Assembly: GCF_011745625.1 (NCBI RefSeq)
Contig: NW_027191461.1
Location: 682,001 to 705,719 of the forward strand
Source: Cladosporium halotolerans
Taxonomy: Eukaryota
DNA: 23,719 nucleotides
Reading direction: 5' to 3'
The notes beneath the pieces are model-generated. The model saw nothing but the letters and a program-made list of their open reading frames with translations. It had not been told where the DNA came from and made no database searches. The position numbers and the translations under genes are program-made. Positions 47 to 22,100 of this stretch are shown piece by piece (positions within the stretch are counted from its first letter, which is position 1; every line of letters starts with the position of its first letter).

Positions 47-1699
47 ATGGAGGCTATGAAGGAGCTCTCCCCCACCACTTCAAACAATGTCCAGGACATG
101 ACCATGGTCGATTCCAGTAACCACACCGGACGACTGGACAGGGCACACTACTCCCCGCCCTGGGCTAACACCTCGATCATCGGCATAGCTGGTAGCTCCG
201 GTTCTGGGAAGACCTCTCTAGCCTATGCCATTATCAAGGAGCTCAGCCTGCCATGGGTGGTCATCTTGTCTATGGACAGCTTTTACAAGCCCTTGACACT
301 TGAGCAGAGTGCTGCTGCTTTCAGGAACGAGTACGACTTCGATGCCCCTGAGGCCATTGACTTCGATGTTCTTGTCGAGAGGCTGAGGGATATCAAGGCT
401 GGGTAAGTGCATCCGGAATGTTGGCATCGTTATTTTCACTAACACCTCTGAAGCAAGAAAGCAGACATCCCGGTGTACTCATTCGAGAAGCATGCCCGAC
501 TTGATAAGTCCACGACCATCTATTCGCCGCATGTACTCATCCTTGAGGGCATCTTTGCTCTGCATGATCAGCGCGTCTTGGACATGCTTGATTTAAAGAT
601 CTTTGCAGACGCCGAGCCTGATCTTTGCTTATCCCGACGACTGCTTCGTGACGTGCGAGAGCGCGGCCGAGACATCGAAGGTTGCATCAAGCAGTGGTTC
701 AGCTTTGTCAAGCCCAACTACCACAAATATGTGGAGCCGCAGAGGAATGTTGCTGGTAAGTTTGAATTTTGTTATTACAATGCCACCTGTCATCATGATG
801 ATTCAAAATTAATGCATAGTTCAACTGAATCACATTGAAGAAACACAAACCATCACGTCTTTCGCTCCTATCTGATCTTTACCTTATCCTCAAAATTCTA
901 GCGCGCTATTCTACGAGCACTAGCTAATGGATTATCAGATCTTATTGTCCCTCGAGGCATTGAGAACAAAGTTGCTATTAGCATGATCTCAGACCGCGTT
1001 CACAAGACGCTTGACGAAAAGTCAGCTCTACACCAGGCGGAGCTACGGCGACTCGGGAAAGTGTCGGAAGACGCGCCCCTTTCGCCGAACGTGATTGTCC
1101 TCGACCCTTCGAAACAAGTGCGAGGCATCAATACTAGGCTGATGGAGCCTGGTCTCGATCGTGAGGATTTTGTCTTCTACTTTGACCGCCTTGCAGTCAT
1201 GCTTGTAGAGAAGGCGACTGAGCCCCTCCGCTATAAGTCAACTGTCGTGGAAACGCCAGTCCCAGGCAACACCTACAACGGGCTCGCCCTGGATGGCATC
1301 GTGTCCGCCGTAGTTGTCCTTCGTGGTGGCAGTATCCTCGAGACCGGCCTCAAGCGAGTCATCCCCGACTGCCGTACCGGCCGCATTCTCATCCAGACCA
1401 ACTTCCGCACAGGCGAGCCTGAGCTGCACTACTATTCGCTGTCGCCTGAGATTAGCAAACACAATGGGGTTCTGCTTCTTGACCCTCAGATGAGCAGTGG
1501 CGGCGCTGCTCTGATGGCCGTCAAGGTCCTGCTTGACCATGGCGTGAGGGAAGATAAGATCGTCTTCGTCACCTACACTGCAGGCACGCAGGGACTGAGG
1601 CGCCTCATGAGCGTCTTCCCCGATATTAAGGTCGTCGTTTGTAGGATCGTCGAAGACCTGGAGAGAAGATGGCTTGAGACTCGATACTTGGGTTGCTAG
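47..1699 (+). CDS. URK1: Uridine/cytidine kinase with C-terminal UPRTase-like domain (~472 aa); exons 47-402, 454-755, 939-1699
   Basis: P-loop IIGIAGSSGSGKT, plus DSFYK, YDFDAPEAIDF, ILEGIFAL and RDVRERGRD kinase motifs. C-terminal PRTase fold (VVLRGG, LLLDPQMSSGGA). Introns 403-453 (GTAAGT..CTAAC..AAG) and 756-938 (GTAAGT..CTAAT..CAG) join the three ORFs in frame. Confidence 0.95.
792..877 (+). ncRNA. snR60: Box C/D snoRNA, snR60-like, double guide for 25S rRNA 2'-O-methylation, inside URK1 intron 2
   Basis: Box C ATGATGA 795-801, D' CTGA 825-828, C'-like TTGAAGA 835-841, box D CTGA 872-875. D' guide GCATAGTTCA is complementary to LSU UGAACUAUGC. D guide GTCTTTCGCTCCTAT is complementary to LSU AUAGGGGCGAAAGAC with one G-U pair. 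rRNA segments and yeast snR60 guides recalled from memory; exact ends are approximate. Confidence 0.9.
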
Positions 1700-6208: not shown

Positions 6209-6402
6209 TTAATAGAAATCTTGCGACTGATTGCCATAATCTTGGCCAAAACCAGGCCTCTCTGCGTGATCCATGTTCATAAAATGATTGAGGTCTGCGT
6301 CACCCTGCCCAATGTTCTGCGCGGTATCAAACCGCGGATCAATGTTGATAGCCTGGGTACCTGTAGAATCATCAAGGGACGGGTCCATGTTTGCAGGCAG
6401 TG

Positions 6403-6434
<32 letters not shown>

Positions 6435-8265
6435 GTCGGTGTGTCTTGGATCTCCGCACCAGCTGGAAGAGCATGCCCCAGCGCGTCACGACGACTTGGC
6501 GTCTTGATGTTCTGACTGCGGATTTTCGGTAGGTTGGGAGCTCTGTTGGCGTTCTGGCAATCGTCGCGGCTGTTCATCCAAAGCGAGGCTTCTTGGATGT
6601 CGCCCTTAGCGGCCATACCATCGAAAGCCGCTTGGCCCTGAAGGATGGGTAGGAGGGTACTGGCTTCGTACCAACGACCTTTGACAGCATCCAGATCGAT
6701 ACGTGCCTGCCCACGCATAAGCTTCCAGTAGCTAGCGACACGCTTCACGTGGATCGACCGTGAATTGCGAAAGCCTAAGTCCCGGGTGAGGCGCTCTGGT
6801 AGTTGGGAATTCATGCTTGGTGCAGCAGGTGTCGGAACGTTGGGATCATCATGCTGGACATTAACGAGCGAATAGATGTCTCCAACGAAATGCATCGACT
6901 GCTGGAGGACTTGACCAGTCATGGCTGCCGTCTTTCGCCGCTCCACCACGGATTGGACAACCATTATGTCTGTTCCCGACCCTATAGCTAATCGCACGGG
7001 TTCGCCGACCCAGAGTTTCTCTCCTCCGAGGTAAAGCCCGTCAAAATGAGTTTCAGACACTCCAGGCTCAGCCTCGACGACCCGAGACTGGCCGAACGGG
7101 GTATAAGTCGAGTCTATACTCTTGGCTGCCAGAATCGAAGCGTCCACTTCCATGTCACCGCCAGTTCCGAACGCTCCTGACCGTAAAGCATTCCAGTCCA
7201 GAGCTTCGTACCGTGGCGGTTCCGCAGTATTGTTAAGTCCCGGGTAGGTGAACGCTGGGACACTCCAAGCTAACCAAGGCCGCATGTCGAACTCGGATGT
7301 CTTGGTGACTGCCACCGACGGACCGTGAGGATATGTCAGTGGTTGCACAGTGTAGCTGACTTGGCCGGCAGAAGATTTCCATCGTCGCATTACCACGCCT
7401 AGACCCCACGCTTGAACTCGACTGAACCATACCACTTCTCCCGGGCGATACATGAAGTTGCCACGTCGGTCGTCTTGCTGATCGATAGTCTTCGCAGGTG
7501 GCATTGGGCTTGGTCGTTGTTGTGACTGCTGTGCTTGTTGAGGGGTAGGAACCGCCGGACGAGGCGACTCTTGGGCTACGGGTTGTGGTCGTGTTGCAAA
7601 TGAACTCGCCGGAACAGTCTTCGGCTCTGGTTCCGGCTTGACCTCCTGCTTCGCAGGCTTCTCTGCCTTGGCGACCCTGCTGGACCCAGTATCAACATCT
7701 TCTGGAGAGCAGATCTTGCAAGCACAGTTATCCGGATCGCCACTCTCGTCCGTGCATAGCCATAGCAAATGTGGAAAGAAGTCTGCGGGGCTGCGGAAGC
7801 GCTTCTTCCGTCCTGTAGGATGGCCGTAGAGGTATGCGTCTTGTCTGTCATTGCCTCCTCCTGCATGTGTCTTGGTCTTCACCTCCGTTTCTCCATCCTT
7901 TTCTGTCTTCTTGACGTGTTCATACAAGCGATAGCCTTCCGGGAACGTGACGAGCATGCAGCCATTGTCTAAGAAGTATGAGCGATTGCGCCTTGGTTAA
8001 AGGGCAGGATGTCATACACACCACTTCCTGTGGGATCTCTCCATTCTAATTCGCGTGCCAGCATGCTGCCTAGCTTTCGTCTCCAATCCAAGTGCTTGAT
8101 CTCGTCTGAAGCGACCTCACGGTAGAAGTCGCTGACACCATTCTTATCGGGCTTCTGATCCAGTTGTGCGTCTGTCGGTTGGTTGGGCTCTCTCAATTTG
8201 CCTTTGGCAAAGATCTCGAACTTGCCGTCGCTCCTCCGCGGGTAGATCGGATAGAAGCGTGCCAT
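6209..8265 (-). CDS. clr2: Cryptic loci regulator 2 (Clr2)-like transcriptional silencing protein (~667 aa); exons 8265-8022, 7968-6209
   Basis: Clr2 N-terminal signature FPEGYRLYEH...DAYLYGHP..KRFRSPADFFPHLLWL...CACKIC, plus C-terminal YRPGEVVW, RPWLAW and GLYLGGEKLWVGEPVRL motifs. A 53-nt intron 8021-7969 (GTGTGT..TAG); the donor position is somewhat uncertain. Confidence 0.85.
6404..6433 (-). repeat. (CAG)10 microsatellite encoding polyQ in the Clr2 C-terminus
   Basis: Ten perfect CTG units on the + strand; translated as TQQQQQQQQQQSL. Confidence 0.95.
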
Positions 8266-8705: not shown

Positions 8706-9397
8706 ATGCCGTACAACAACACTCCTATAGCTCCTTCCAAGGAGATTACTGGCACTGTGTCCCTACCGCGTATGTCCAACCTAGTCCTCAGTAGCTTGCA
8801 CATCCCTTCCTGTTATTGTTATCGACACTACCAAGCATAAACACCTTCAAAGATCCGCCTTGACATCTCTAACATATCACTTCTCAGTCGCTCGCGTGAA
8901 GAAAATCATAGCTCAGGACGACGATATCAACAATTGCTCGAACAACGCCGCCTTCGTTATCACCGTCGCTACTGAGATGTTCCTGCAGCATCTCGTGGAA
9001 CAATCACACAACGTTGTCAAGTCAGAGCGCAAGCCAAGGAGGAATATCCAGTACCGTGACGTTGGTAAGTTTCATCAGTCCCGGACATCTGCTGTCTCTC
9101 GCTGACAGACATGTAGCAAACGCAGTCGCTCGAGTGGAGAACCTCGAGTTCCTCACAGACGTCGTGCCCAAGACTCAGACCTACAAACAAGCAAAGCAGA
9201 AGCAAGCCAAAGAACCCGCCGCGAAAGCCAACGGTGCCACGAACGGTCAAAAGACCCTCGATCAACACATGGGCGAAGGCGCAGAGGAGCAGGCAACGAA
9301 CGGCGCAGCTCACGACCCAGAGAGCATGGACGTCGACGAGCAACGCCCATCTGGCGCTACGGTGCCGATTAGCAAGTTGGAGAACGAGGCCTCGTAG
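8706..9397 (+). CDS. H2A-like histone-fold protein, Dpb3/Dls1 (CHRAC/DNA polymerase epsilon subunit) type (~173 aa); exons 8706-8769, 8888-9064, 9117-9397
   Basis: SLPLARVKKIIAQDDDI..CSNNAAFVITVATEMFLQHL..RRNIQYRDVANAVARVENLEFLTDVVP is a CBFD/NF-Y-type histone fold. Introns 8770-8887 (GTATGT..CTAAC..CAG) and 9065-9116 (GTAAGT..CTGAC..TAG). Confidence 0.88.
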
Positions 9398-9697
9398 GAT
9401 GCGGCCGCTCCGCACACAAATCCACATCCCGACCGGGAGAACATCGATCCCGATGCATAGGAAAGCATCGACTATGAAGAGAACATACAGTGGTACGATC
9501 CTGCTCTCGACCGACCTATTACTTTTTCCTTCGAGGAGGACTCTTGCGAGGGGCATGCCCAAAGCTCCACAGGCTCGGACGGATGCCGCCCGGCCAGCAA
9601 CAAGACAGAAATCGACCTTGTCGAAGCGCCGCAAGACTGGATCAATGGTTTCGATGCCGGATTTAACAACAGGCCTTTTGGCCCGCATAATTCTGCC

Positions 9698-10555
9698 ATG
9701 TATTGTCAGGGCTACGTCGACGGGCAAACGGAATGGAGCAATCCAATTCCACCTTCGTGTGCAATGCTGCCGGGTGAAAACGGATTGGACGCGAGCTCGC
9801 TGAACTCTGCGACTATTGACCCTACAATTTTGCAGCAAGGTGGGGAGTCTATGGCCGATTCATCCTTCTCATCATCACCACGCAGCACAAGGCAAGGGAA
9901 TGGGGTCTACTTTCCCTTGAATGCTTACCCTGATTTGGATTCTGAGCCCATCACAGTAGCTAGTATCGGGGAAATCGCATACCCTCACCCAACCGCACCT
10001 GAGTTTGCTCGAATCACTGTCGACAGGCCTGGACGAGTCGAGCTTACTTTGACTTCTGCGGAAAATGAAACGCGCAGTTCAAGCTCGCAAGCAAATCCGT
10101 CACGAATTCTGTACCTTAGAGATTTGGAGACCAACATCTCTCAATTCGACGGCGCAGACACTACTCCTTTGCTGGCGGCGCCTGTACTATTCGAACCAAC
10201 CCCTTTGATGGATTTATACTCGAAAACGCGTAATGGGCTACTTTATAACTTCGACCCTTTCCCCTCATACCAGGACGAAACACTTCCTCTTCCAGAAGCG
10301 GGAGGATCTGGCATGGGAAATCCTCGTCTTCTCGGCATCCAACGGAAATTTGGCACGAGCTCTGCTGTCCACAACAATCTTTCGATGGCTCATCACAGCC
10401 GGGTGAAAGCTTGCTTTTTGGCTTCGCAGGGCGATGCCTCTGGAGCAGTGCTTGAACTAGAACGCTGCTTAGCTCTGGAGAAAAAAGCTCGCAGGCGGCA
10501 TATGAAGAACGAGTCTCAAAGAAGGAACAGGACCGGGAGAAAGGGGCGGAGGTAG
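9698..10555 (+). CDS. Hypothetical protein (285 aa from first ATG; frame actually open from 9461), basic C-terminus
   Basis: Long stop-free frame that is not the antisense shadow of any other gene model. Protein-like composition with an Arg/Lys-rich end (KKARRRHMK..RRNRTGRKGRR). No family recognised; true start unclear. Confidence 0.5.
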   Translation: MYCQGYVDGQTEWSNPIPPSCAMLPGENGLDASSLNSATIDPTILQQGGESMADSSFSSSPRSTRQGNGVYFPLNAYPDLDSEPITVASIGEIAYPHPTAPEFARITVDRPGRVELTLTSAENETRSSSSQANPSRILYLRDLETNISQFDGADTTPLLAAPVLFEPTPLMDLYSKTRNGLLYNFDPFPSYQDETLPLPEAGGSGMGNPRLLGIQRKFGTSSAVHNNLSMAHHSRVKACFLASQGDASGAVLELERCLALEKKARRRHMKNESQRRNRTGRKGRR

Positions 10556-10684
10556 TCAATAAGCCGCAAGGCGTTTTCGGTCATTTCAGAACATAGTGCA
10601 TGTGGTCGAGGTGACGTGTTGTGCGTTTGGACGCCAGACCGGCTGCCTCGGAAATATTACATTCATTCACTTGAGCTCGACTCT

Positions 10685-12793
10685 TTATTTTGACTTGCCC
10701 TTCCCTTTTTTCAGCCTCGCAACCAGGCCTTGCAACTCTTCATCTCCACCCTTAGCCTCCTTGCCAGCTTTGCCCTTCTTTTTCGCGACCGTGACTTCCT
10801 CAGCGCCGCCATCCTGATCGTGCCTCTTCCTCTTCTTCCTGCCCTCCTCAAGCAGACTCTTCATGCCCTCAGTGCTCTTGAACCTCGGGTTGGTCGGATC
10901 GATAGCATACTCATGGCTGTCAAACAAGGCCTTGAAACGCGGGTCCTCAGCTTCGACCTTGAAGTCGTCCTTCACCGCTTCTTCGGTATTCTTGCTGCCC
11001 TTCCTTCCTTTGCCCTTGCCCTTACGACGGGCCTCCTTCTCGGCCTTCTCGATCTCACGCATGTCGAAGTGGCGCACGCCCTCGCCGTTGGCCTCGTCGT
11101 CCGCCATGAGCAGCTCGAGCTCTGCGCGGCGCGACGCGGCTGCAGCCTCTTCGGCATCGCGCTCAGCGCGCTTCTTCGCCTTGTCGGCTTTGCGAGCAGA
11201 CTTCTCGGCCGCAGCGGCAGCGTTAGGGTCGTTGAAGAATGGGTCGTTGAACGGGTCTTCTTCGTCGGCAGCGTCCGCGGCCGGGCCGCCTTCCTGCTCT
11301 GAGCCGCTGTGGCCGCCGTTCTCTTCCTCCTCGCAACGGCCGGCCTTGTTCTTGTCCTTGCGGCGCTGCTTGCGCTCTTTCTCCTTGCGGATGTAGCGCT
11401 GGCGTGTGCTCTCTTCGTCCTGCGGCTCGTTCTCGAAGACGCCCTTGGAATCCTTGTTCGCGTTCAAGCCCGAGGAGAAAGTGATCTGCATGTCGCCGAC
11501 GGGCTCGTCCTTAGACTTCTTCGAGCGCGAGGACTCCTCAGAGAGACCGAGGGCGGCACGCATTTTCTGCCTCTCCGCCTCGCGCTTGTTGGCCTTGCGG
11601 TCTGATGCGCTGACGGATTTGCGCGAAGAGACGCTGTCGTTGTCCGAGGAGTCGGAGCCGATGTAGGCTTGCAGGTCGTTCTCGTCCATCTCGGCGCGAG
11701 AGAAGGCGCGCTTTTGGACTTCTTTGCGGGTAGTGTCGTCGTCGTCCCATGTCAGGCGGACTTTGGAGTGAGTGAGAGCTTCCGTACGGAAATCGTTGGG
11801 CTTATAGCCATCAGGAAGTTTTGTGCACTGCTCGCGAGGGGTATCATCGTCGAAGGAAACCTCATCTGGGATGAAACGAAGGTCGAAGAAGTTGGAGGTA
11901 GTCAGGTATTCGCGGTTGTCCAAGTCATCGTAGACTGCTTTGGCGGTCGTCTTGTTGTCGCACTCGATAACCGCGTAGTAGTATCGCAGGCGCTCAAGCT
12001 GGTACTGTCGCAGCTTTGCATCGTCGAACTCCTCGCCCTCTCCCGCCTGCTCCTTCAACAGACGCTTCTTGATCTTCTCCTCCTCGTCCTCGTCACTGTC
12101 TGACTCGTCCTCAGACTCTTGCTTGCGCTTGCTGCTCGCAAAAATCTCTCTAGGCGGACCCTCGAGCTCCTCGCGCTCCATGCGCTCACGCCCAAATTCA
12201 CTAGGGAAGATTGTGACGCTCTCTACTCTTCCCGCAGCCGGCGCGAAGCTGGATGCGACGGCCATGATATCTGCAGCTCTAATGTGATCCCAATCCAGAT
12301 TTACAGCAGCAATTCTCGTAGAAGCTTCGCCCATAGGGACCTGCTCTGTCTGCTCGCCGCCAGCTGTCGCATCCGCCAATTCATCTTCGTCTGCGCTGTC
12401 CTCCTCTTCTGATGTTGTCTCCTCTTCGGAGGATGATTCATCAAATCCTCCCTGTCTCGCCGGATCGTGAACATCCAGATCTTCACCATCATCGCTCTCT
12501 TCCTCGCTCTCATCCGAACTTCCAACGACCTCTCTCGTGGGCTTCTTAGATTTTCCCTTCTTTGGCTCATTGTCTTCGTCCTCGTCCTCCAACCTAAACC
12601 GCTTCTCAATATCTTTCTTTCCACTGCCCTGCTTCAACTTCCGGCCATATCTGTCGACGGTCGCCTTCTTCTGGAACCCTTGGTCGGTGAAGAGGCGCTT
12701 GAATCGAGGATCGACGGCGGTCTGCGCCTGCTTTTTGCTAGGCAGACGGTACCGCGGGTCTGACGCGAGGGCCGCGAAACGCTTGTCGGCCAT
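10685..12793 (-). CDS. ESF1: Pre-rRNA processing protein Esf1 (~702 aa), intronless
   Basis: N-terminal DPRYRLP..DPRFKRLF..VDRYGRK; RIAAVNLDWDHIRAADI; LRQYQLERLRYYYAVIECD; FFDLRFIPD; C-terminal NUC153 motif DPRFKALFDSHEYAIDPTNPRFK. Start taken at the ATG at 12793 (MADKRF). Confidence 0.93.
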   Translation of the reverse strand: MADKRFAALASDPRYRLPSKKQAQTAVDPRFKRLFTDQGFQKKATVDRYGRKLKQGSGKKDIEKRFRLEDEDEDNEPKKGKSKKPTREVVGSSDESEEESDDGEDLDVHDPARQGGFDESSSEEETTSEEEDSADEDELADATAGGEQTEQVPMGEASTRIAAVNLDWDHIRAADIMAVASSFAPAAGRVESVTIFPSEFGRERMEREELEGPPREIFASSKRKQESEDESDSDEDEEEKIKKRLLKEQAGEGEEFDDAKLRQYQLERLRYYYAVIECDNKTTAKAVYDDLDNREYLTTSNFFDLRFIPDEVSFDDDTPREQCTKLPDGYKPNDFRTEALTHSKVRLTWDDDDTTRKEVQKRAFSRAEMDENDLQAYIGSDSSDNDSVSSRKSVSASDRKANKREAERQKMRAALGLSEESSRSKKSKDEPVGDMQITFSSGLNANKDSKGVFENEPQDEESTRQRYIRKEKERKQRRKDKNKAGRCEEEENGGHSGSEQEGGPAADAADEEDPFNDPFFNDPNAAAAAEKSARKADKAKKRAERDAEEAAAASRRAELELLMADDEANGEGVRHFDMREIEKAEKEARRKGKGKGRKGSKNTEEAVKDDFKVEAEDPRFKALFDSHEYAIDPTNPRFKSTEGMKSLLEEGRKKRKRHDQDGGAEEVTVAKKKGKAGKEAKGGDEELQGLVARLKKGKGKSK

Positions 12794-14453: not shown

Positions 14454-16125
14454 TCAGAGGTCGGCTAGAGGCGTACTGGTATTGTTCTCCTCTTCCAACG
14501 TGTCGGTCTCCTTCCAGAACGCCGTTGGGCCTGCGGGGCCATGGATATCGTAGTCCCTAGCAAATCAATGTCAGCGTTGGAGTGGTACATCCGTCCGAGT
14601 CAGCCTCATCCTACTTATCGAACCAGTTTCCCAGCACGCCCCGAGCAGACCTCAGCCCGCCAACCTGAATTCCTTCGGAGCGCCAGCGCTCCTCGCCGTG
14701 GAAGATAGAAAACGTCGTCCATCGGATCTGGCCCTCGGGCGTTTGCCGTACGGTGCCTCGTTCCGCATCAGTTTCAGCTTTCTCCATTTTTGAGCTTGTA
14801 AGGGACTTGGGGTGGACTCACCACGGATCTTGCTGTTGGCGTTTGGATCCCAGCTTGCATGGAGACTCCTCGATGTTCCCGCGAAATGGACGATTGGTAG
14901 CCGCTCGCCTTGGAAATTGCTCCAGTCTAGCCCGTCGTCTTCGTCTTCGTCGTCGTCATTTTCGCTATGTGAGTTTGGCATCTCAATCTTGGTGACGTGC
15001 CATTTCACGCGGATTAGTCGAATTGCTGAGACGAGAAATGTAATCGTTAGACCTCAGAAGCACTGCATTCTCAATGCCAAACATACCTTCTTCTGTGTTT
15101 ATAGGTTCCCGCGGCTCGTTCGCCGGCGTGCGCTTCGTGAAATTGAAGGCGTACAAATCGTTGAAATCAAGGAAACAAACAACACGCATCCAAGTCCCCG
15201 TCACCCCATACGGATCCTGAGCATCGAGGCCAAGAGCAAGTTCGCGGATCTTCAGAAGCTCTTCGTCGAGCTCTTTATCAGGTGCCGGAGCGGGCGGGAG
15301 CGAGATATACGACCTCGGCGTAGCACCAATGAACGGCTCGTCCCAGATCAACGGAAAGCGACCTCCAGACCTCTCAGTGAACTTCCTCAGATTGAACCCA
15401 AGCACAATCATGATGGCCTCCACCTTCTCCCAGTCCACCCGCTGCGAGCCATCGTCGCGGAAAGGCCCCCAGAGCGTCGCGTCCGTGTACTGCCTCAGAT
15501 CGTACACCTTCGAGCGCGCATACGTATGCGTCAGCCTCGGCTTCGACCCACTCCTCGTACGCGAAGGCGACGAAAACTGCACGTGCGGCTGCCACTCGAA
15601 GAACGGCGTGGGGGCTGGGACTTCGTCCACCGGCACGCCGTACAGGCAGTGCAGTTTGGCGGACGTCTGGCAGAGCTCTTCGGTCGCGGCGGGGATCTGG
15701 CTGATGCTGCCGGCGCGGCTGAAGAGGGAGCTGGAGCACAGAAAGACGTCGATGTTGGCCACGTCGGCGAAGTGCTCGGCCAGAAGGCGGATGTTCAGGC
15801 TCGCGTCGGGATCAGAGGCGGACGTCTCTAGCAGGTGGTCAATACGCTCCGCAACGGTGCCCAGCGCTTCGCGTTTCACTTCGTGGTCTTCGGATTCTAG
15901 GATTCTCTCTAGCTCGAACAGATTGTGGACTTGGGTCTCCCAGTCCAGCTCCGAGTCCGGCGGATCATATCGCCGTCGGTAGATGTCCTTGTGCAGGAGC
16001 TTGTTGCCGCAGACGTAGCGGTTGAGGTCTTTACATGTACGGCTTATCGAGGACAAGTCTGTGGGCGAAATCTCCGTGAAGATGCAGTGTAACAGCTCGT
16101 GGCTCAGCTCGAGCAGTGACGCCAT
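14454..16125 (-). CDS. Fungal F-box domain protein (~495 aa); exons 16125-15087, 15025-14822, 14756-14615, 14556-14454
   Basis: N-terminal F-box LLELSHELLHCIFTEISPTDLSSISRTCKDLN. Downstream blocks DPYGVTGTWMRVVCFLD, GTVRQTPEGQIRWT, RWRSEGIQVGG and HGPAGPTAFWK are joined in frame by three introns. Confidence 0.85.
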
Positions 16126-19100
16126 TTGGCGGACCAGCCAGGGTGTGAATGAGGGCTTCGCACGCTTTAAGGTGACGATAATAGAGACTGTCTATATGAT
16201 AGCAAATGTCACTTGATAATGATGGATAGGATCCTAGATGATGATGATATTGTTAGAGGAGTGTAGTGTTGGCGGCGCGGGACTAAAGAGTGGTATGCCT
16301 TATCTCCGAACCCCACCTTGCGTCGCTGCCCCCACGCCACGCTGCACGAAGTGATGGCGGTGATTTCCTGTACGGCACGACTTTTTCGTTGTTGTCAGCA
16401 AATGCGCTGAGAAAGTTTTACATACACAATAACGGTCGACTTTGCTTCAGCATTCTCGGAAATGGGTGCTCAAGTAAACCGTCCACACGCGCTCACCGTC
16501 GTCCGCCCGGAATGACGTAATCGCAGACGACTGTCGTATACGGAAGTTGAAGTGATTGAACAAATACTCGCCATGTGACAGGCGCTTCTACAGGTGGCTT
16601 GTGGGAAAACATGTATCAGAATGGTTGAAATTTAGGAAGAAATTCTGGTCCATAATGAATCGCAGAAAAAGGAATGATAAGGGGTGTATCAGGCCTCCAT
16701 CACTTTGAACAGTTGTCTGCTAGCAGCGAGAAAGTAATGATCTGAACAGGGCATGTAAAGGTTCGTGGCTACAATCTGTCTGCGTTAACAGAAACTCGAT
16801 TTATTAGTATACGCAGTTTAAATGGGCATAAGCGACAGCAGAGGTAACCTAACGGGAGTGTCATTCATCCAGAGATGATGACGGTACTGATCGCTTTAGG
16901 CAAATGAAGGTGAGCCCCGACAACGCGAATCACGTCGGCCATCAAGCGAACACGCAATTATGCTACCATGGAAGTCCCATTTGCGGGCGGTGCCGCCATT
17001 GGAAAGCACCATCCTATCTCGTGTCGATCGGACCTACTGCCGACATACAATAAACTGCCGTCCGAACTCCATCCTAGTCGAAGTTGCCTAGCGGAAGGAG
17101 GAAAATACACCAACCTCCAACGCAGGCTATCGAAGGCACTAGGTCCGACTTACACCACAACGAGAGGAGATAGGCAAGATACTCCGCATGCAACCCATAA
17201 GGCTCTCCCAACACGCCGCCAAGTCGTGCCGATCTGGCGCACGCATCTATACGCCAGATCTTGTATAGCCTCGATCCTGGCATGTGGGAACTGAGATTGG
17301 GACAAGTATCCAAAGCCTTGGGTCCCGTAGTCGCTAGCCAGAATAGTGGAGGGGCGGAGAGCTTCGGGGAGGAAGATGCCGTCGCAGGCGTACAGAGGAT
17401 GGGCCTCTCAGAAGAGAGACATGAAGAGGCATGCCGCGCGCGCTGCCGATGTGGAGCTATACCACGCTCACCGCTATAGCTACCGGACTAGGGGTATACC
17501 GGTATGTGGGTGTTGGCGCACCTCAGTGGGCGAGCGCAGGGTCTGGTTGCTTTGACATGCTTTGATGCTCGATCTCTTACCCCACTTCTGGGGCGTTTGG
17601 CTCGCAACGGTGCGAGATGTGTTGTTGTTCCCATCGGAGGGTCGGACGATACGCCGTTGCAAGCAATAGTCCACCGGTCGGAGTGTCGATCTCGAGAAGC
17701 GGACAGCCACCGACAAACGTATCCTCCCGAACATTCGGTAGGGAGAGTTCGAACTCTCTTTCGACGCATACCACCTCTTCGCGGCCAGACAAGCACGTTG
17801 TATGCGACGTCGGGCCGCTGTGGTAGGCTCGAGACGGAGAAATTCTTAGGCTGAGAGCAGTCCAAACTTCGAAGGCAAAAATGCAAGGAAGAATGACTCC
17901 CGTCCACTTGCCGAGCACCGCGACACGTTGTGGTCTGGTCAGGGTCTCTCGCCCACGCGAGTAAGAGGACGCGAGCTCAAGCTTCCCTTTTAGTCACGCT
18001 GTTGCAATCGCACATCCCCTCCATCTTGCCGTACAGTACCAGGCGTGCGGAACCGCTGCAAAGCCCACCGCGATACGGTGGCGCTTGTGTTGTCAGCGGC
18101 GGTTCTCGGTCGCTGCACGATCGAGCGCGCGGCTCTTCGCGTGGCTGGCGATGGACGGTGGAGGGGTGGGCTTGTGGGGATAGACTCGACTATTTGAGTT
18201 GGTGCGACCACGGGTGTATGCGCGCGCGAACTCAGGGAGACGTCCGACCAGAACTATCGCGAACTGTCACTGCAGGCTGGTGAACCCACCGGCCAGGCCA
18301 CCGGGTCTCGTCTGATTTGGACGCGCCGCCTGCCACCCCTGCGAAGATCCGATTGTCGACGCGCAAGCGAGATGGAAATCGTGGGGGCAGCGGACGACGT
18401 CTCATCATCCTTCGCGCGGCCTCGCGAGAGCAATGTCCCCCTCGCCTTACGCGTGCGTCCTGCGTCGCCCTCGCATGCCCGCATGGCGCGCAGACTTCAC
18501 GAGACCAGATGAAGCCGCAGGTTTGACTTGGGCCAGCGGAAGGCCATGGCCGGCGCCCGGTGTGCGCGCCAGGCCTGCCAACGGCGGAGCCATCTCGCTC
18601 TACTGCAGGAGCTTGCACTCCACAGACCGCCGGCTGCCGCCCCCATTGGCCGTGCGGCGTGCGAGAGGGTCTGCCGTGCATGTGCTGTCGGGCCCAGCTG
18701 CCCACGATTTGGGAGCGGCGCGCAGGAGTTGCCCGGCCGAAATAGCACGCATTGCGCGAGGGCATCAGGCGTAGCGATGATCAGGGGACATTTTATTATC
18801 TCGCTCGCGCGCACGCCCGCCTCGCTCGAAGGCATCGCACAATCGACTCTCCCACCTATACGTGCCTCCTCCTAAGCACCAGCGACAAGCTCAGCCCGAT
18901 CGACACCCTCCACCCAGCGTGCGGCTCCCGACCTGTCTCTGACCTGCGCCGGCCCGTCGCAGCCCTTCCTCCTCCCCTTCCCCATCAGAACCTCTGATAT
19001 AGCGACGGCGTCGCGGATTATAGGCGGCACGGTGGATGGGATCGCCTGCCGCGCTGCAATCACTGTTACTGCATGCGGCAGAAGCGCGCCTCGGTCGCCT

Positions 19101-19135: not shown

Positions 19136-22100
19136 ATGTCTCGTCAGGACTCGACCAGCACCCTCAGCGCCGCAGCCCGCAACTCGGCCAGCAGCACCAA
19201 CAGCCTTCACCCGCTCTCTCCCCTCTTCAAGCGCGACTCTGCCGCCTCCTTGGGCCACGCCGGGTCACGGTCGGATGCCAGGCGCATTTCGTTAAGGCGC
19301 TCCTTCCAGAGCTCCGAAGCGGCCTTTGTCGAAGACGATCTCGCCCAGTTCCTCGCCGACCAGCCAGCCATCATGGGGCCCGTCTACCGCCTGGTGAGTC
19401 TCCGTTTCTCCTTTCTTTCCTCCTCGCACGACTCATCAACCCTCCATCTGCCCGCACATCGACGTCGACTTGGCATCATGGCACGATATCGACACCAGTG
19501 GCTTGATCGCGGTGGTAGCGTCGATACGAATGCTCACGACTGGCGCCACCCCACGGCCACATCGAGCCTCATCGGTGATGCTGACAGGCCACGGCGCGAA
19601 AGCCCTCGGCTGCGTGCGCGTCATGCCCGTCGGCCGGTGGGTCCGGGCTTCGGCTGATCCCACCCGACAGCCAAACAGAGCGCACACCTTGCGGCGATCA
19701 TCTGGCTTCTGCCCACGGACGCCGCCATCTCGCGTGGGCAGATCTTTCGACCATGCCCATGCACGCTTGACGTACGGCCGATCTGTCACAATTTCACTGC
19801 CACTCCGCTGAGCCTGCTCTCATCATTCAAGACACTGACGTTCCCTCTTCTCAGTATCCGCATCAGACCGCCAGCGGCCGTCGTGAGATCCGCGCCGCCT
19901 CAGACGCCATCGGTTCTCGCCCTGCATCCCGTCTGCAGGAACAAGGCATCCCAGATCGCGCCGAATTAGCTCACACTGCGACTCCCGGGCGTGCCTCGCA
20001 CGACTCCCAATTGACTTCGTCGGAGCCGCCCCGCAACAAGCCGGTTGCACAAGACTCGCAGCACGGCAATCGACCCTCGCGCGACTCCTCTTCTCGGCCA
20101 TTGTCGCCAGCGAGTGTCTTCTCCAAATACTACCACGCGAGTCTTCCGACGCCTCCCGAGCCCAACTTCAACACTGCCGAGTCCACCGGGGAAGTTCCAA
20201 GGACCTGGACTCGCAACAGTATTCGCATTCCGCCGAGGATTAGGTTCGTTGTGGCGGAGATCGATGATCATTCGAGCCAAGATGCTGACAGTTGCTCGAG
20301 CAGTTCGGCACACAACAACAACGTTGTAAATATCACTCGACGAAACAGCATCAGCCAGATACTCGAGTGCATGCCAGCGGCGCCATCAAGTTCTGTAAAT
20401 TCCGTTGCAAATTCCGACTCAGAGCCAGGGTCGCCAGGCGCAATGACCGATCCTCACGCGGGCATCGGCGACCGGAGCAGCAGAGATTCTCGCGACTCCA
20501 TCGACACCACAGCAACTTCCATCCACACTCTTCCACCTTTGCAGAGCAAGGCCCTTGACGGCAATGACGCTCATGCGCTGGAGCCTTTAGTGGAGGACGA
20601 CCCTCGCTCATTCGATCTTGTAGAGCCGGCGCAGAAGGACGGCAACGTCGGTCTGTACGAACTAGAGAAGCAGGCCGAACAGCTTCTGTCAAAGGAACAC
20701 CTCAGTGCTATCTTTGCCGATCCCAAACTTCTGCTCAAGTTCAATGGCTTTCTCAGCTCGCACAGACCTCAAAGCATACCGCTACTGATTTACTATCTGG
20801 ACGCACTGAAGGCTCTTCGTGCAATCCATTACGCCAATGCTGTCGCCGAGGCTCTGGAACCAATCCCGTCTTGCGACTTCACTAAGGAGATTGCTCAGCA
20901 GACCGCGAACGCCACTCTCCAAGAAAAGGCCAACAAGGCATTCGAAATCCTCGTCAGGGAGGACTTGCCCGCGTACATCTGCTACACATGGATTCAGGTC
21001 GTCTCGACTAGCATTCAGAAACGCATCACTGGTACCCTGGCCCCTCACCTGAGAGAAGCGAGTGAAGGATTGGCGGAAGTCTTCTGTCTTAGCGATCCTT
21101 CCAGACACGACAACCCCATCGTGTTTGCTTCTGAAGAATTTGCTCGCACAACCCAGTACGGAATGAACTACTCCATCGGGCGTAATTGCCGCTTCCTTCA
21201 AGGGCCGAAGACCGATCCGAATTCGCCCCGACGCTTGGCCGAAGCATGTGCGGCTGGCAGGGAACAGACCGAAGTGTTTGTCAACTACCGACGTGACGGC
21301 AGCCCATTCATGAACCTCTTAATGATCGCGCCGCTCATGGACAGCAAGGGCACTGTCCGTTACTTCATTGGCGCCCAGGTTGACGTTAGTGGCCTACTCA
21401 AGACCTGCAGCGACCTTCCCGGACTCGCGAAACTCGTCGATGAAGAGTACGAGCGGGAGGATCACGAGAAGAGAAAGAAGAAGGGCAAGGAGTTCCAGCA
21501 GCTTTCTGAGATGTTCAATGGCGCTGAGCTCGATCTTGTCCGCCGTCATGGCGGCCGGATGCACAGGGAGTATGTTGACGACAGCGATTCGGAAAGCATC
21601 CATGGCGCGGACCGCAACCGGCCGCGACTCATGCTTTCCGATCCTAGCCAGGATGTTCTCGACAGGCAAAGGGACCGCATGGCGCCTGGTGTGCCTCTCG
21701 TGGACAAGGAGCGTATCAACGGCAAGCTCGCTGGTGTTTACCAGAACGTAAGTAGTGGCCTCAGGCAGAACCTCGTTGGCGCTCCTGCTGTGGTGAGATG
21801 ACTGTGATCTTTTGCTGACATCGACGACAGTACCTCCTCATTCGACCTTCTCCCTCTCTGCGAATCTTGTTCACCTCGCCATCGCTCCGCGTCCCTGGAA
21901 TCTTGCAGTCTCCTTTCCTCCATCGCATTGGTGGCTCTCCACGTGTGCGTGCCGATCTAGCTGCTGCGCTCGGCGAAGGTCGTGGTGTCACTGCAAAGAT
22001 CAGGTGGCTCGCAAAACCCGACGAGGATGGCGAGGGCGAAGGCCGCCCACGATGGATTCATTGCACCCCACTGTTTGGTCACACCGGCGCCGTCGGTGTT

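Follow-up and report, generated by a model that had tools for sequence, protein, structure and literature searches.

A conserved pair of in-frame UAG codons between a Dpb3/POLE4-like gene and an ATG-less orphan frame in a Cladosporium-like lineage: a candidate for conditional stop recoding

Adenosine-to-inosine (A-to-I) editing of mRNA has been documented in Fusarium, Neurospora, Sordaria and Pyronema (PMC11156358), and hundreds of genes lose their canonical UAG stop through editing (PMC11156358, PMC10776026, PMC13123824). Stop editing can also occur in hyphae under oxidative stress (PMC11169179). Three edited genes are the closest described counterparts of the locus reported here. In CHE1 of Fusarium graminearum (PMC11169179), a conserved in-frame UAG separates a short product, made by default, from a longer one that contains the conserved domains. 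In PUK1 of the same species (PMC11156358), TAGTAG is changed to TGGTGG, and in DBF2 (PMC13123824), a conserved housekeeping-type gene of Sordariomycetes, stop-loss editing adds a C-terminal extension behind the canonical TAG. We analyzed a 23,719-nt stretch of Cladosporium halotolerans DNA (contig NW_027191461.1 of assembly GCF_011745625.1, positions 682,001 to 705,719, forward strand), referred to as the window. In this window, a Dpb3/POLE4-like histone-fold gene ends at a TAG (TAG1), which is followed in the same frame by a second TAG (TAG2) and then by a long orphan open reading frame (ORF).

The fungal A-to-I editing that corrects premature stops or causes stop loss depends on the ADAT Tad2-Tad3. 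Stops can also be passed by programmed readthrough, with contexts such as UGA CUA in fungal peroxisomal isoforms, UAG CAR YYA in viruses, and UAG G with a pseudoknot in retroviruses. For the locus described here, we consider the chances about even that a 173-aa protein is made by default and a 559-aa fusion conditionally, by recoding of both UAGs. The proposed locus would be one expression unit with two outputs. By default, translation from ATG 8706 would terminate at UAG 9395 and give the 173-aa histone-fold protein, and the orphan frame would be expressed only as a C-terminal extension when UAGs 9395 and 9458 are both recoded. Such a fusion would carry, in this order, the histone fold, a long disordered linker, a GFDAGFNNRP motif and a basic helical hairpin.

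The Dpb3/POLE4-like gene has three exons on the + strand (8706-9397), and its spliced frame of 173 codons ends with the TAG at 9395. Past TAG2, the orphan frame stays open from 9461 to 10552 (364 codons) in the frame of the Dpb3-like gene. With both stops read as sense codons the fusion measures 173+1+20+1+364 = 559 aa, which bears out the approximate length proposed in an earlier note on this DNA. The layout given there, with a TAG at 9395, another at 9458, an open frame to 10555, and 79 codons before a first ATG at 9698, was accurate in every coordinate. Both internal stops read TAGGA, i.e., TAGGAT at TAG1 and TAGGAA at TAG2.

The principal new result is the conservation of this layout. A scan of metagenome contigs gave 99 pattern matches, seven of which were confirmed as related loci (L001-L007). 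L003 and L005 are almost identical in sequence, and L006 is closely related to L007. L003, L004 and L006 contain the upstream gene in full and have, as in the window, a convergent ESF1 gene next to the orphan ORF. Wherever a locus reaches the last exon of the Dpb3-like gene, this exon is in frame with the orphan ORF across two stops. TAG1 is TAG in all six loci that reach it (five distinct), followed by GAT, GAA, GGA, AAA or AAA, and TAG2 is TAG in all eight loci including the window (seven distinct), with alignment columns G118-A125 invariant. The internal stops are thus TAG in 14 of 14 cases. The terminal stop of the orphan frame is variable (TGA four times, TAG three times, TAA once) and differs even between L006 and L007.

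The distances around the stops are conserved as well. The stop-to-stop segment has 20 codons, or 21 in L003 and L005, the sole indel being of 3 nt, and the distance from TAG2 to the invariant N-terminal motif of the orphan frame is exactly 50 codons in 8/8 loci. In the two introns of this gene, length differences between loci are not divisible by 3 (spans of 62, 62, 66 and 67, and of 181, 165, 165 and 166). Judged by these lengths, the spacing around both stops behaves as coding sequence does, unlike the introns. The codons before TAG2 are conserved at the peptide level (..QENI[D/E/G]P[L/D]A) and change at third positions (AAT/AAC, CCT/CCC, CTT/CTG). Summed pairwise ratios of nonsynonymous to synonymous differences (pN/pS), which come from five sequences near saturation and are weak evidence, were 0.21 for the Dpb3-like tail, 0.57 for the inter-stop segment, 0.64 for the 50 codons after TAG2 and 0.29 for the motif. 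The similar values on either side of TAG2 suggest peptide-like conservation up to that codon. These comparisons agree with the relatives check proposed in the earlier note: both sites are TAG in all loci that reach them, the motif, most of which lies upstream of 9698 in the window, is under purifying selection, and the frameshifting indels in 9398-9697 that would have spoken against a fusion are present neither in the related loci nor in the RNA contigs described below.

Conservation of this kind leaves little room for a truncated or decaying gene, or for a gene that starts at ATG 9698 and shares the frame by chance, an explanation that we find hardly credible. A shared frame does have a prior of one in three, as the note had pointed out, the window has the in-frame ATG at 9698, and P0001, a database protein 98% identical to the orphan protein, was called from this ATG by prokaryote-type gene callers. 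However, a start at 9698 would halve the invariant motif, and the first Met in the other loci is found at residue 86 to 265. All related loci that extend far enough have the same frame, TAGs and spacing, which goes beyond the one-in-three prior, and the layout is free of frame-breaking indels in all seven related loci and in four near-identical strains. Purifying selection on the family, with the motif ratio given above, also argues against decay. The note had allowed for a recent CAG>TAG or TGG>TAG change; this was rejected because the TAGs are conserved across loci whose synonymous sites are near saturation.

According to the protein comparisons, the orphan frame encodes a genuine protein family that is conserved, lineage-restricted and under purifying selection. 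A search of 5.8 billion proteins gave ten relatives, and a profile search of 1.84 billion proteins gave 17 representatives (E<=0.001), all of 365 aa or less. All family members that were looked up derive from Logan, ENA or JGI ORF calls and none from curated eukaryotic annotation. The orphan protein has no Pfam family and no usable Atlas match. Its N-terminal motif lies mostly upstream of ATG 9698 in the window, and the codons upstream of this ATG are taken as coding because the invariant columns I51..P95 of the orphan alignment lie there. A second invariant block, ..SQG...A....EKKARR...KN.SQ..R, is found near the C-terminus. In the AlphaFold2 model, helices 301-322 and 326-363 form a block with a predicted local distance difference test score (pLDDT) of 94-98, the rest scores below 50 and the mean is 48.6; the protein is thus predicted to be disordered apart from the C-terminal helical hairpin. 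No fold match to the model was found at E<=0.001.

Database versions of the orphan protein begin downstream of TAG2. The first residues of P0002-P0010, given as M or L, correspond to TTG in the locus DNA (e.g., CTT TTG AAC in L006), and we infer that they are alternative starts chosen by prokaryote-type gene callers. An apparent pairing of TAG2 with Gln in database proteins was rejected as an alignment artefact, as the proteins in question begin only after the stop. The C-terminal helical module (..L.S.GD.D.AA.A...A...E.KA.R...KN..Q..R..) was also seen without the N-terminal motif in the metagenomic proteins P0021, P0023, P0024 and P0038, in places two or three times, and from this distribution it may be a wider, undescribed domain.

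The upstream gene was assigned from its histone fold. Exon 2 alone scored 32.6 bits against PF00808 (CBFD_NFYB_HMF), above the family cut-off of 21.4. The best solved relative of the protein is 5y26_B (E 2.2e-11), which we take to be the S. pombe Dpb3 of the Dpb3-Dpb4 structure, and NF-YC chains scored much lower. A JGI protein named DNA polymerase epsilon subunit 4 is 57% identical to it. The best solved match and this one JGI source name point to Dpb3/POLE4, as far as similarity can tell. The protein is 88% identical (150/171) to the N-terminal part of an NCBI protein of Cladosporium fusiforme and 89% identical (147/166) to that of an NCBI protein of Cladosporium sp. NU13. Cladosporium is a Dothideomycete genus, in agreement with the suggestion of the note that the host might be a Dothideomycete. 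Orthologues beyond the Cladosporium group matched the query in its histone-fold part only, covering 17-34% of it, and the orphan extension appears, from these matches, to be restricted to a Cladosporium-like lineage. A gene for a Clr2-type silencing protein (6209-7996, - strand; PF16761 E 6e-24, PF10383 E 6e-13) adjoins the Dpb3-like gene upstream in divergent orientation. Clr2 and Dpb3-Dpb4 are both heterochromatin factors in fission yeast; the adjacency may be a coincidence.

Transcript evidence came from four sequencing runs, X1, X8, X10 and X13 (organisms coded A, C, D and F), which hold sequences ~97-99.6% identical to the window. These runs are not recorded as RNA and were treated as such because their contigs skip introns. 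X1 record 2 joins 8967-9063 to 9116-10655, with intron 2 removed, and crosses both TAGs. X8 record 18 extends from 8715 to 9738 with both introns removed and also crosses both TAGs, as do X10 record 9 (9334-9630) and X13 record 15 (9221-9462). Both TAGs are thus kept in four near-identical strains. In the contigs of the four runs, there is no splice joint between 9116 and 10655 and no indel in 9398-9697. All four assemblies read A at 9396 and 9459, and every mismatch is accounted for elsewhere. The A>G change that the note proposed to look for at these positions is thus not seen in assembled contigs of bulk RNA. Since minor variants are lost in contigs, this result applies to the bulk RNA of whatever growth stage was sampled. 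The bulk transcript across the junction is unspliced and unedited.

A further contig, X1 record 3 (1671 nt), comes from a more divergent relative and aligns to the window only at 8967-9062 in exon 2, at 9431-9480 around TAG2, and at 10809-10846 in the ESF1 end. Since it aligns at TAG2 and at little else, the TAG2 block is a conserved island, and the X1 sample apparently includes another species in which the gene order is the same. In one X8 contig, the match to the window stops at 10568 (13 nt past the orphan stop) and Illumina adapter follows, and the X1 contig runs on to 10655; the X8 end may be that of a fragment or of a transcript. An ESF1/NUC153 homologue (10685-12793, - strand) converges on the orphan ORF, with stops ~130 nt apart (10555 and 10685). 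Because the X1 contig runs to 10655, the 3' ends of the + strand unit and of ESF1 probably abut or overlap.

The contigs also bear on splicing as a way around the stops. A minor or stage-specific intron could remove both TAGs in frame, so that retention would give the short protein and splicing the fusion. We regard this as highly unlikely. In a search in which all in-frame, stop-free GT..AG pairs were enumerated in five loci, the window did offer a 72-nt in-frame bypass, from GTAGGA at 9394 to the AG at 9464-9465, which is the intron that the note had proposed. A similar bypass is present in the NCBI model P0045 of C. fusiforme, in which the residue preceding TAG1 is followed directly by sequence from a few codons past TAG2, and the NCBI model P0046 of Cladosporium sp. 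NU13 joins ..PIGKL to ..DQNY. On the other hand, contigs of the four RNA runs that do show both true introns contain no bypass joint, including the 9393/9466 junction that the note had suggested as a check. The bypass donors scored 2.0-4.3 out of 7 on a crude scale of our own, as against 6.5 for GTATGT and 7 for GTAAGT, the true donors scored by hand. There is no CTRAY branch site, with one partial match only (L002). The bypass positions are not homologous between loci, and the GT of the donor proposed for the window is absent at TAG1 in 4/5 distinct loci. The two NCBI models use different sites, and an intron would keep neither its length nor a peptide-like pattern. In the CHE1 study, introns of this type are described as annotation errors (PMC11169179). 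By analogy, the fusion introns of P0045 and P0046 are probably annotation artefacts of the CHE1 kind.

Alternatively, the orphan frame could be translated alone, from a shared or internally initiated transcript, using a non-AUG start shortly past TAG2. TAG2 would then be a mere upstream in-frame stop, and the conserved block would be a leader, promoter or initiation element. We find such an independent gene rather unlikely. The contigs that bridge both genes fit the shared transcript suggested in the note; contigs do not reveal where transcripts end, how abundant they are or whether minor forms exist, and a bridging contig is not proof of a single mRNA. L001 and L007 start 16 nt and 44 nt upstream of TAG2, respectively, and both end ~100 nt past the ORF, as transcript contigs would. 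P0018, a distant relative, begins with M about 3 codons past the TAG2 position, although this is a Logan call and the M may be an alternative start. Among near-cognate codons, TTG is found at codon 10 in 5/7 distinct loci and AAG at codon 4 in 5/7. No near-cognate start is common to all loci, however, and the window lacks both that TTG and that AAG. Out-of-frame ATGs precede the candidate starts in several loci. An in-frame ATG before the invariant motif is absent in 8/8 loci, where the first Met is found between residues 80 and 265; none of the eight thus has an AUG of its own upstream of the conserved domain. The part of the note's proposal that concerned a separate gene therefore has neither a start codon nor a conserved near-cognate to begin from. 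It also leaves the invariant TAGs, the shared frame, the 20-21-codon spacing and the third-position variation before TAG2 unexplained. The data thus point to ribosomes that enter the orphan frame in frame from upstream, where the AUG of the Dpb3-like gene is the only one they could use.

Three ATGs in another frame, at 9399, 9453 and 9474, were considered as starts that could lead into the orphan frame by a frameshift or an intron. This was rejected as these ATGs are not conserved in other loci. They belong to a 228-codon alternative frame (9117-9803, + strand) that overlaps the junction, as does a 280-codon antisense frame (9017-9859, - strand); neither frame is kept in the related loci.

Recoding of both stops can follow two routes. 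The more likely one is conditional A-to-I editing of each UAG to UIG, read as Trp, which we put forward tentatively. Editing preferences described for fungi are U at -1 and A or G at +1 and +3 (PMC11156358). All 12 distinct sites (5 TAG1, 7 TAG2) read U-A-G-[G/A]-[A/G] and agree with this context, a match whose prior is not small because UAG itself fixes -1 and +1. Fungal A-to-I editing also favours hairpin loops (PMC11156358, PMC10776026, PMC13123824). The adenosine that would be edited was in a hairpin loop of the minimum free energy (MFE) structure in 6/12 sites (2/5 TAG1, 4/7 TAG2) compared to 11/39 background UAGs, and the mean probability of being unpaired was 0.86 at TAG1 and 0.68 at TAG2 compared to 0.51 for background UAGs. 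In the window, UAG2 sits in the loop of a local hairpin (P(unpaired) 0.80; MFE z-score -1.33, not significant), a form that is not conserved in the other loci. As expected for edited stops, the stop stays UAG across loci, and a conserved motif and a C-terminal domain follow downstream.

The other route, translational readthrough of UAG by near-cognate tRNAs, is quite unlikely. Readthrough, too, would explain a fixed stop type, and the extension behind the stop is conserved, in frame and under selection. The leaky stop contexts named above are absent from the sites (no CARYYA and no CUAG), where UAG is followed by a purine throughout. Downstream RNA structure gave no indication either, as the flanks of the TAGs fold no better than shuffled sequences and their folds are not conserved.

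Double UAG recoding, the first of the options raised in the earlier note, is the best fit to the comparative data, i.e., to the fixed TAGs, frame and spacing and the lack of an ATG, while the RNA contigs read UAG. We infer the recoding itself, its route and its condition from these data. A number of observations weigh against it, beginning with the A found at both sites in all four assemblies and the weakness of the pN/pS estimates. The hairpin-loop setting at the TAGs is not clearly conserved, the z-scores of the folds are not significant, and no covariation was shown. PMC11156358 names Aspergillus nidulans and Botrytis cinerea as fungi in which no A-to-I mRNA editing was found. Our literature search found no report of mRNA editing in Dothideomycetes or Cladosporium. 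For many Cladosporium species it is mainly the asexual form that is known, which speaks against editing in particular. For the readthrough route, a purine after UAG is not known to make the stop leaky, and very little product would be made because two stops in series multiply two small efficiencies. Finally, a stop-free fusion, with TGG or another sense codon at both sites, was found neither among the 17 profile matches from 1.84 billion representatives nor among further sets of 9 and 23 protein matches, a soft negative since clustering at 50% identity can hide such forms.

The boldest form of the recoding proposal is an obligatory double UAG-to-UGG editing switch in Cladosporium-like Dothideomycetes, by which an ATG-less gene is written onto the C-terminus of a Dpb3-like protein; this we regard as possible but doubtful. 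In response to a developmental or stress signal, the 173-aa replication/heterochromatin factor would then become a 559-aa protein that has gained a basic tail for binding to DNA or chromatin. The features on which these proposals are based are listed in Table 1.

Table 1. Features of the Dpb3/POLE4-like gene, the double-TAG junction and the orphan frame (window coordinates).
Feature	Position	Strand	Remarks
Exon 1	8706..8769	+	ATG 8706, end in phase 1; RNA-contig joint 8769>8888 in X1, X8, X10, X13
Intron 1	8770..8887	+	118 nt, GT..AG; skipped by contigs in 4/4 runs
Exon 2, histone-fold core	8888..9064	+	Pfam PF00808 E 1e-7; PDB 5y26_B E 2.2e-11
Intron 2	9065..9116	+	52 nt, GT..AG; skipped by contigs in X1, X8, X10
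Exon 3, acidic/low-complexity tail	9117..9394	+	Conserved in L002-L006; pN/pS 0.21 over last 50 codons
TAG1	9395..9397	+	Default stop of 173-aa protein, first candidate recoding site
Inter-stop segment	9398..9457	+	20 sense codons without in-frame ATG; last 8 codons peptide-conserved (..ENIDP.A)
Local hairpin, window only	9451..9470	+	6-bp stem CGAUGC/GCAUCG, 8-nt loop holding UAG2
TAG2	9458..9460	+	Second candidate recoding site, within invariant GCATAGGA
First 50 orphan codons	9461..9610	+	Weakly conserved linker without in-frame ATG
N-terminal motif, residues 51-95	9611..9745	+	IDLV.EPQ.WI.GFDAGFNNRP...YC.GY..GQ..W..P; invariant columns, orphan alignment; pN/pS 0.29
First in-frame ATG	9698..9700	+	Residue 80, inside conserved motif
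C-terminal helical hairpin, basic tail	10361..10549	+	Residues 301-363, ..EKKARRR..KNESQRR.R..; invariant columns
Terminal stop of orphan frame	10553..10555	+	TAG in window

Elsewhere in the window, frames with F-box, PAS and uracil phosphoribosyltransferase domains were found in 14983-16191 (- strand), 19771-21801 (+ strand) and 902-1699 (+ strand).

If recoding of both UAGs is correct, conditional fungal stop recoding would extend to a new class, and the locus would be a conserved marker by which to ask whether mRNA is edited in Dothideomycetes at all. A whole conserved gene, not a short tail, would exist only as the recoded extension of another gene, and a histone-fold subunit of DNA polymerase epsilon and heterochromatin would gain a regulated alternative form. 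Current annotations of the locus are inconsistent, giving the short gene only, fusions with invented introns, or internal Met/TTG starts. This signature could serve in a genome screen for further recoded genes.

Our literature search found no paper that links Dpb3 with readthrough, a stop codon and fungi, and nothing in print on the locus. By analogy, the locus most resembles the premature-stop-correction and stop-loss editing genes of Sordariomycetes, i.e., CHE1, PUK1 and DBF2, although the RNA-DNA difference that defines these was not seen here. As in CHE1, a conserved in-frame UAG lies between a short default product and a longer form with conserved domains, and no Met is conserved downstream in either case (PMC11169179). 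The annotation signature described for CHE1, in which the stop is taken as canonical, a small intron is invented, or a downstream Met is used as start, is found here in all three forms. Unlike CHE1, which has one TAG, the present locus has two, 20 codons apart, and its upstream part is a complete, widely conserved Dpb3/POLE4-like protein and not an orphan fragment. It also differs from CHE1 in belonging to a Cladosporium-like Dothideomycete lineage and in that no edited read was seen.

The need to recode two UAGs on one mRNA is shared with PUK1, but there the stops are adjacent and inside a kinase gene (PMC11156358), whereas here they are 63 nt apart at the seam of two conserved proteins. In DBF2, as here, the canonical TAG of a conserved housekeeping-type gene is kept across species and recoding adds a largely disordered C-terminal extension (PMC13123824). 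The raised TAG usage and conserved extension cited for that system are both found at the present locus. The DBF2 extension is a short, destabilising tail, while the one described here has 386 aa, its own motif and hairpin, and a second stop to pass. Programmed readthrough genes likewise have a conserved in-frame extension behind a stop of one type, but their leaky contexts are absent here. What sets the locus apart from CHE1, PUK1 and DBF2 is the combination of two separated UAGs, the joining of two complete proteins, an extension of 386 aa and a different fungal class.

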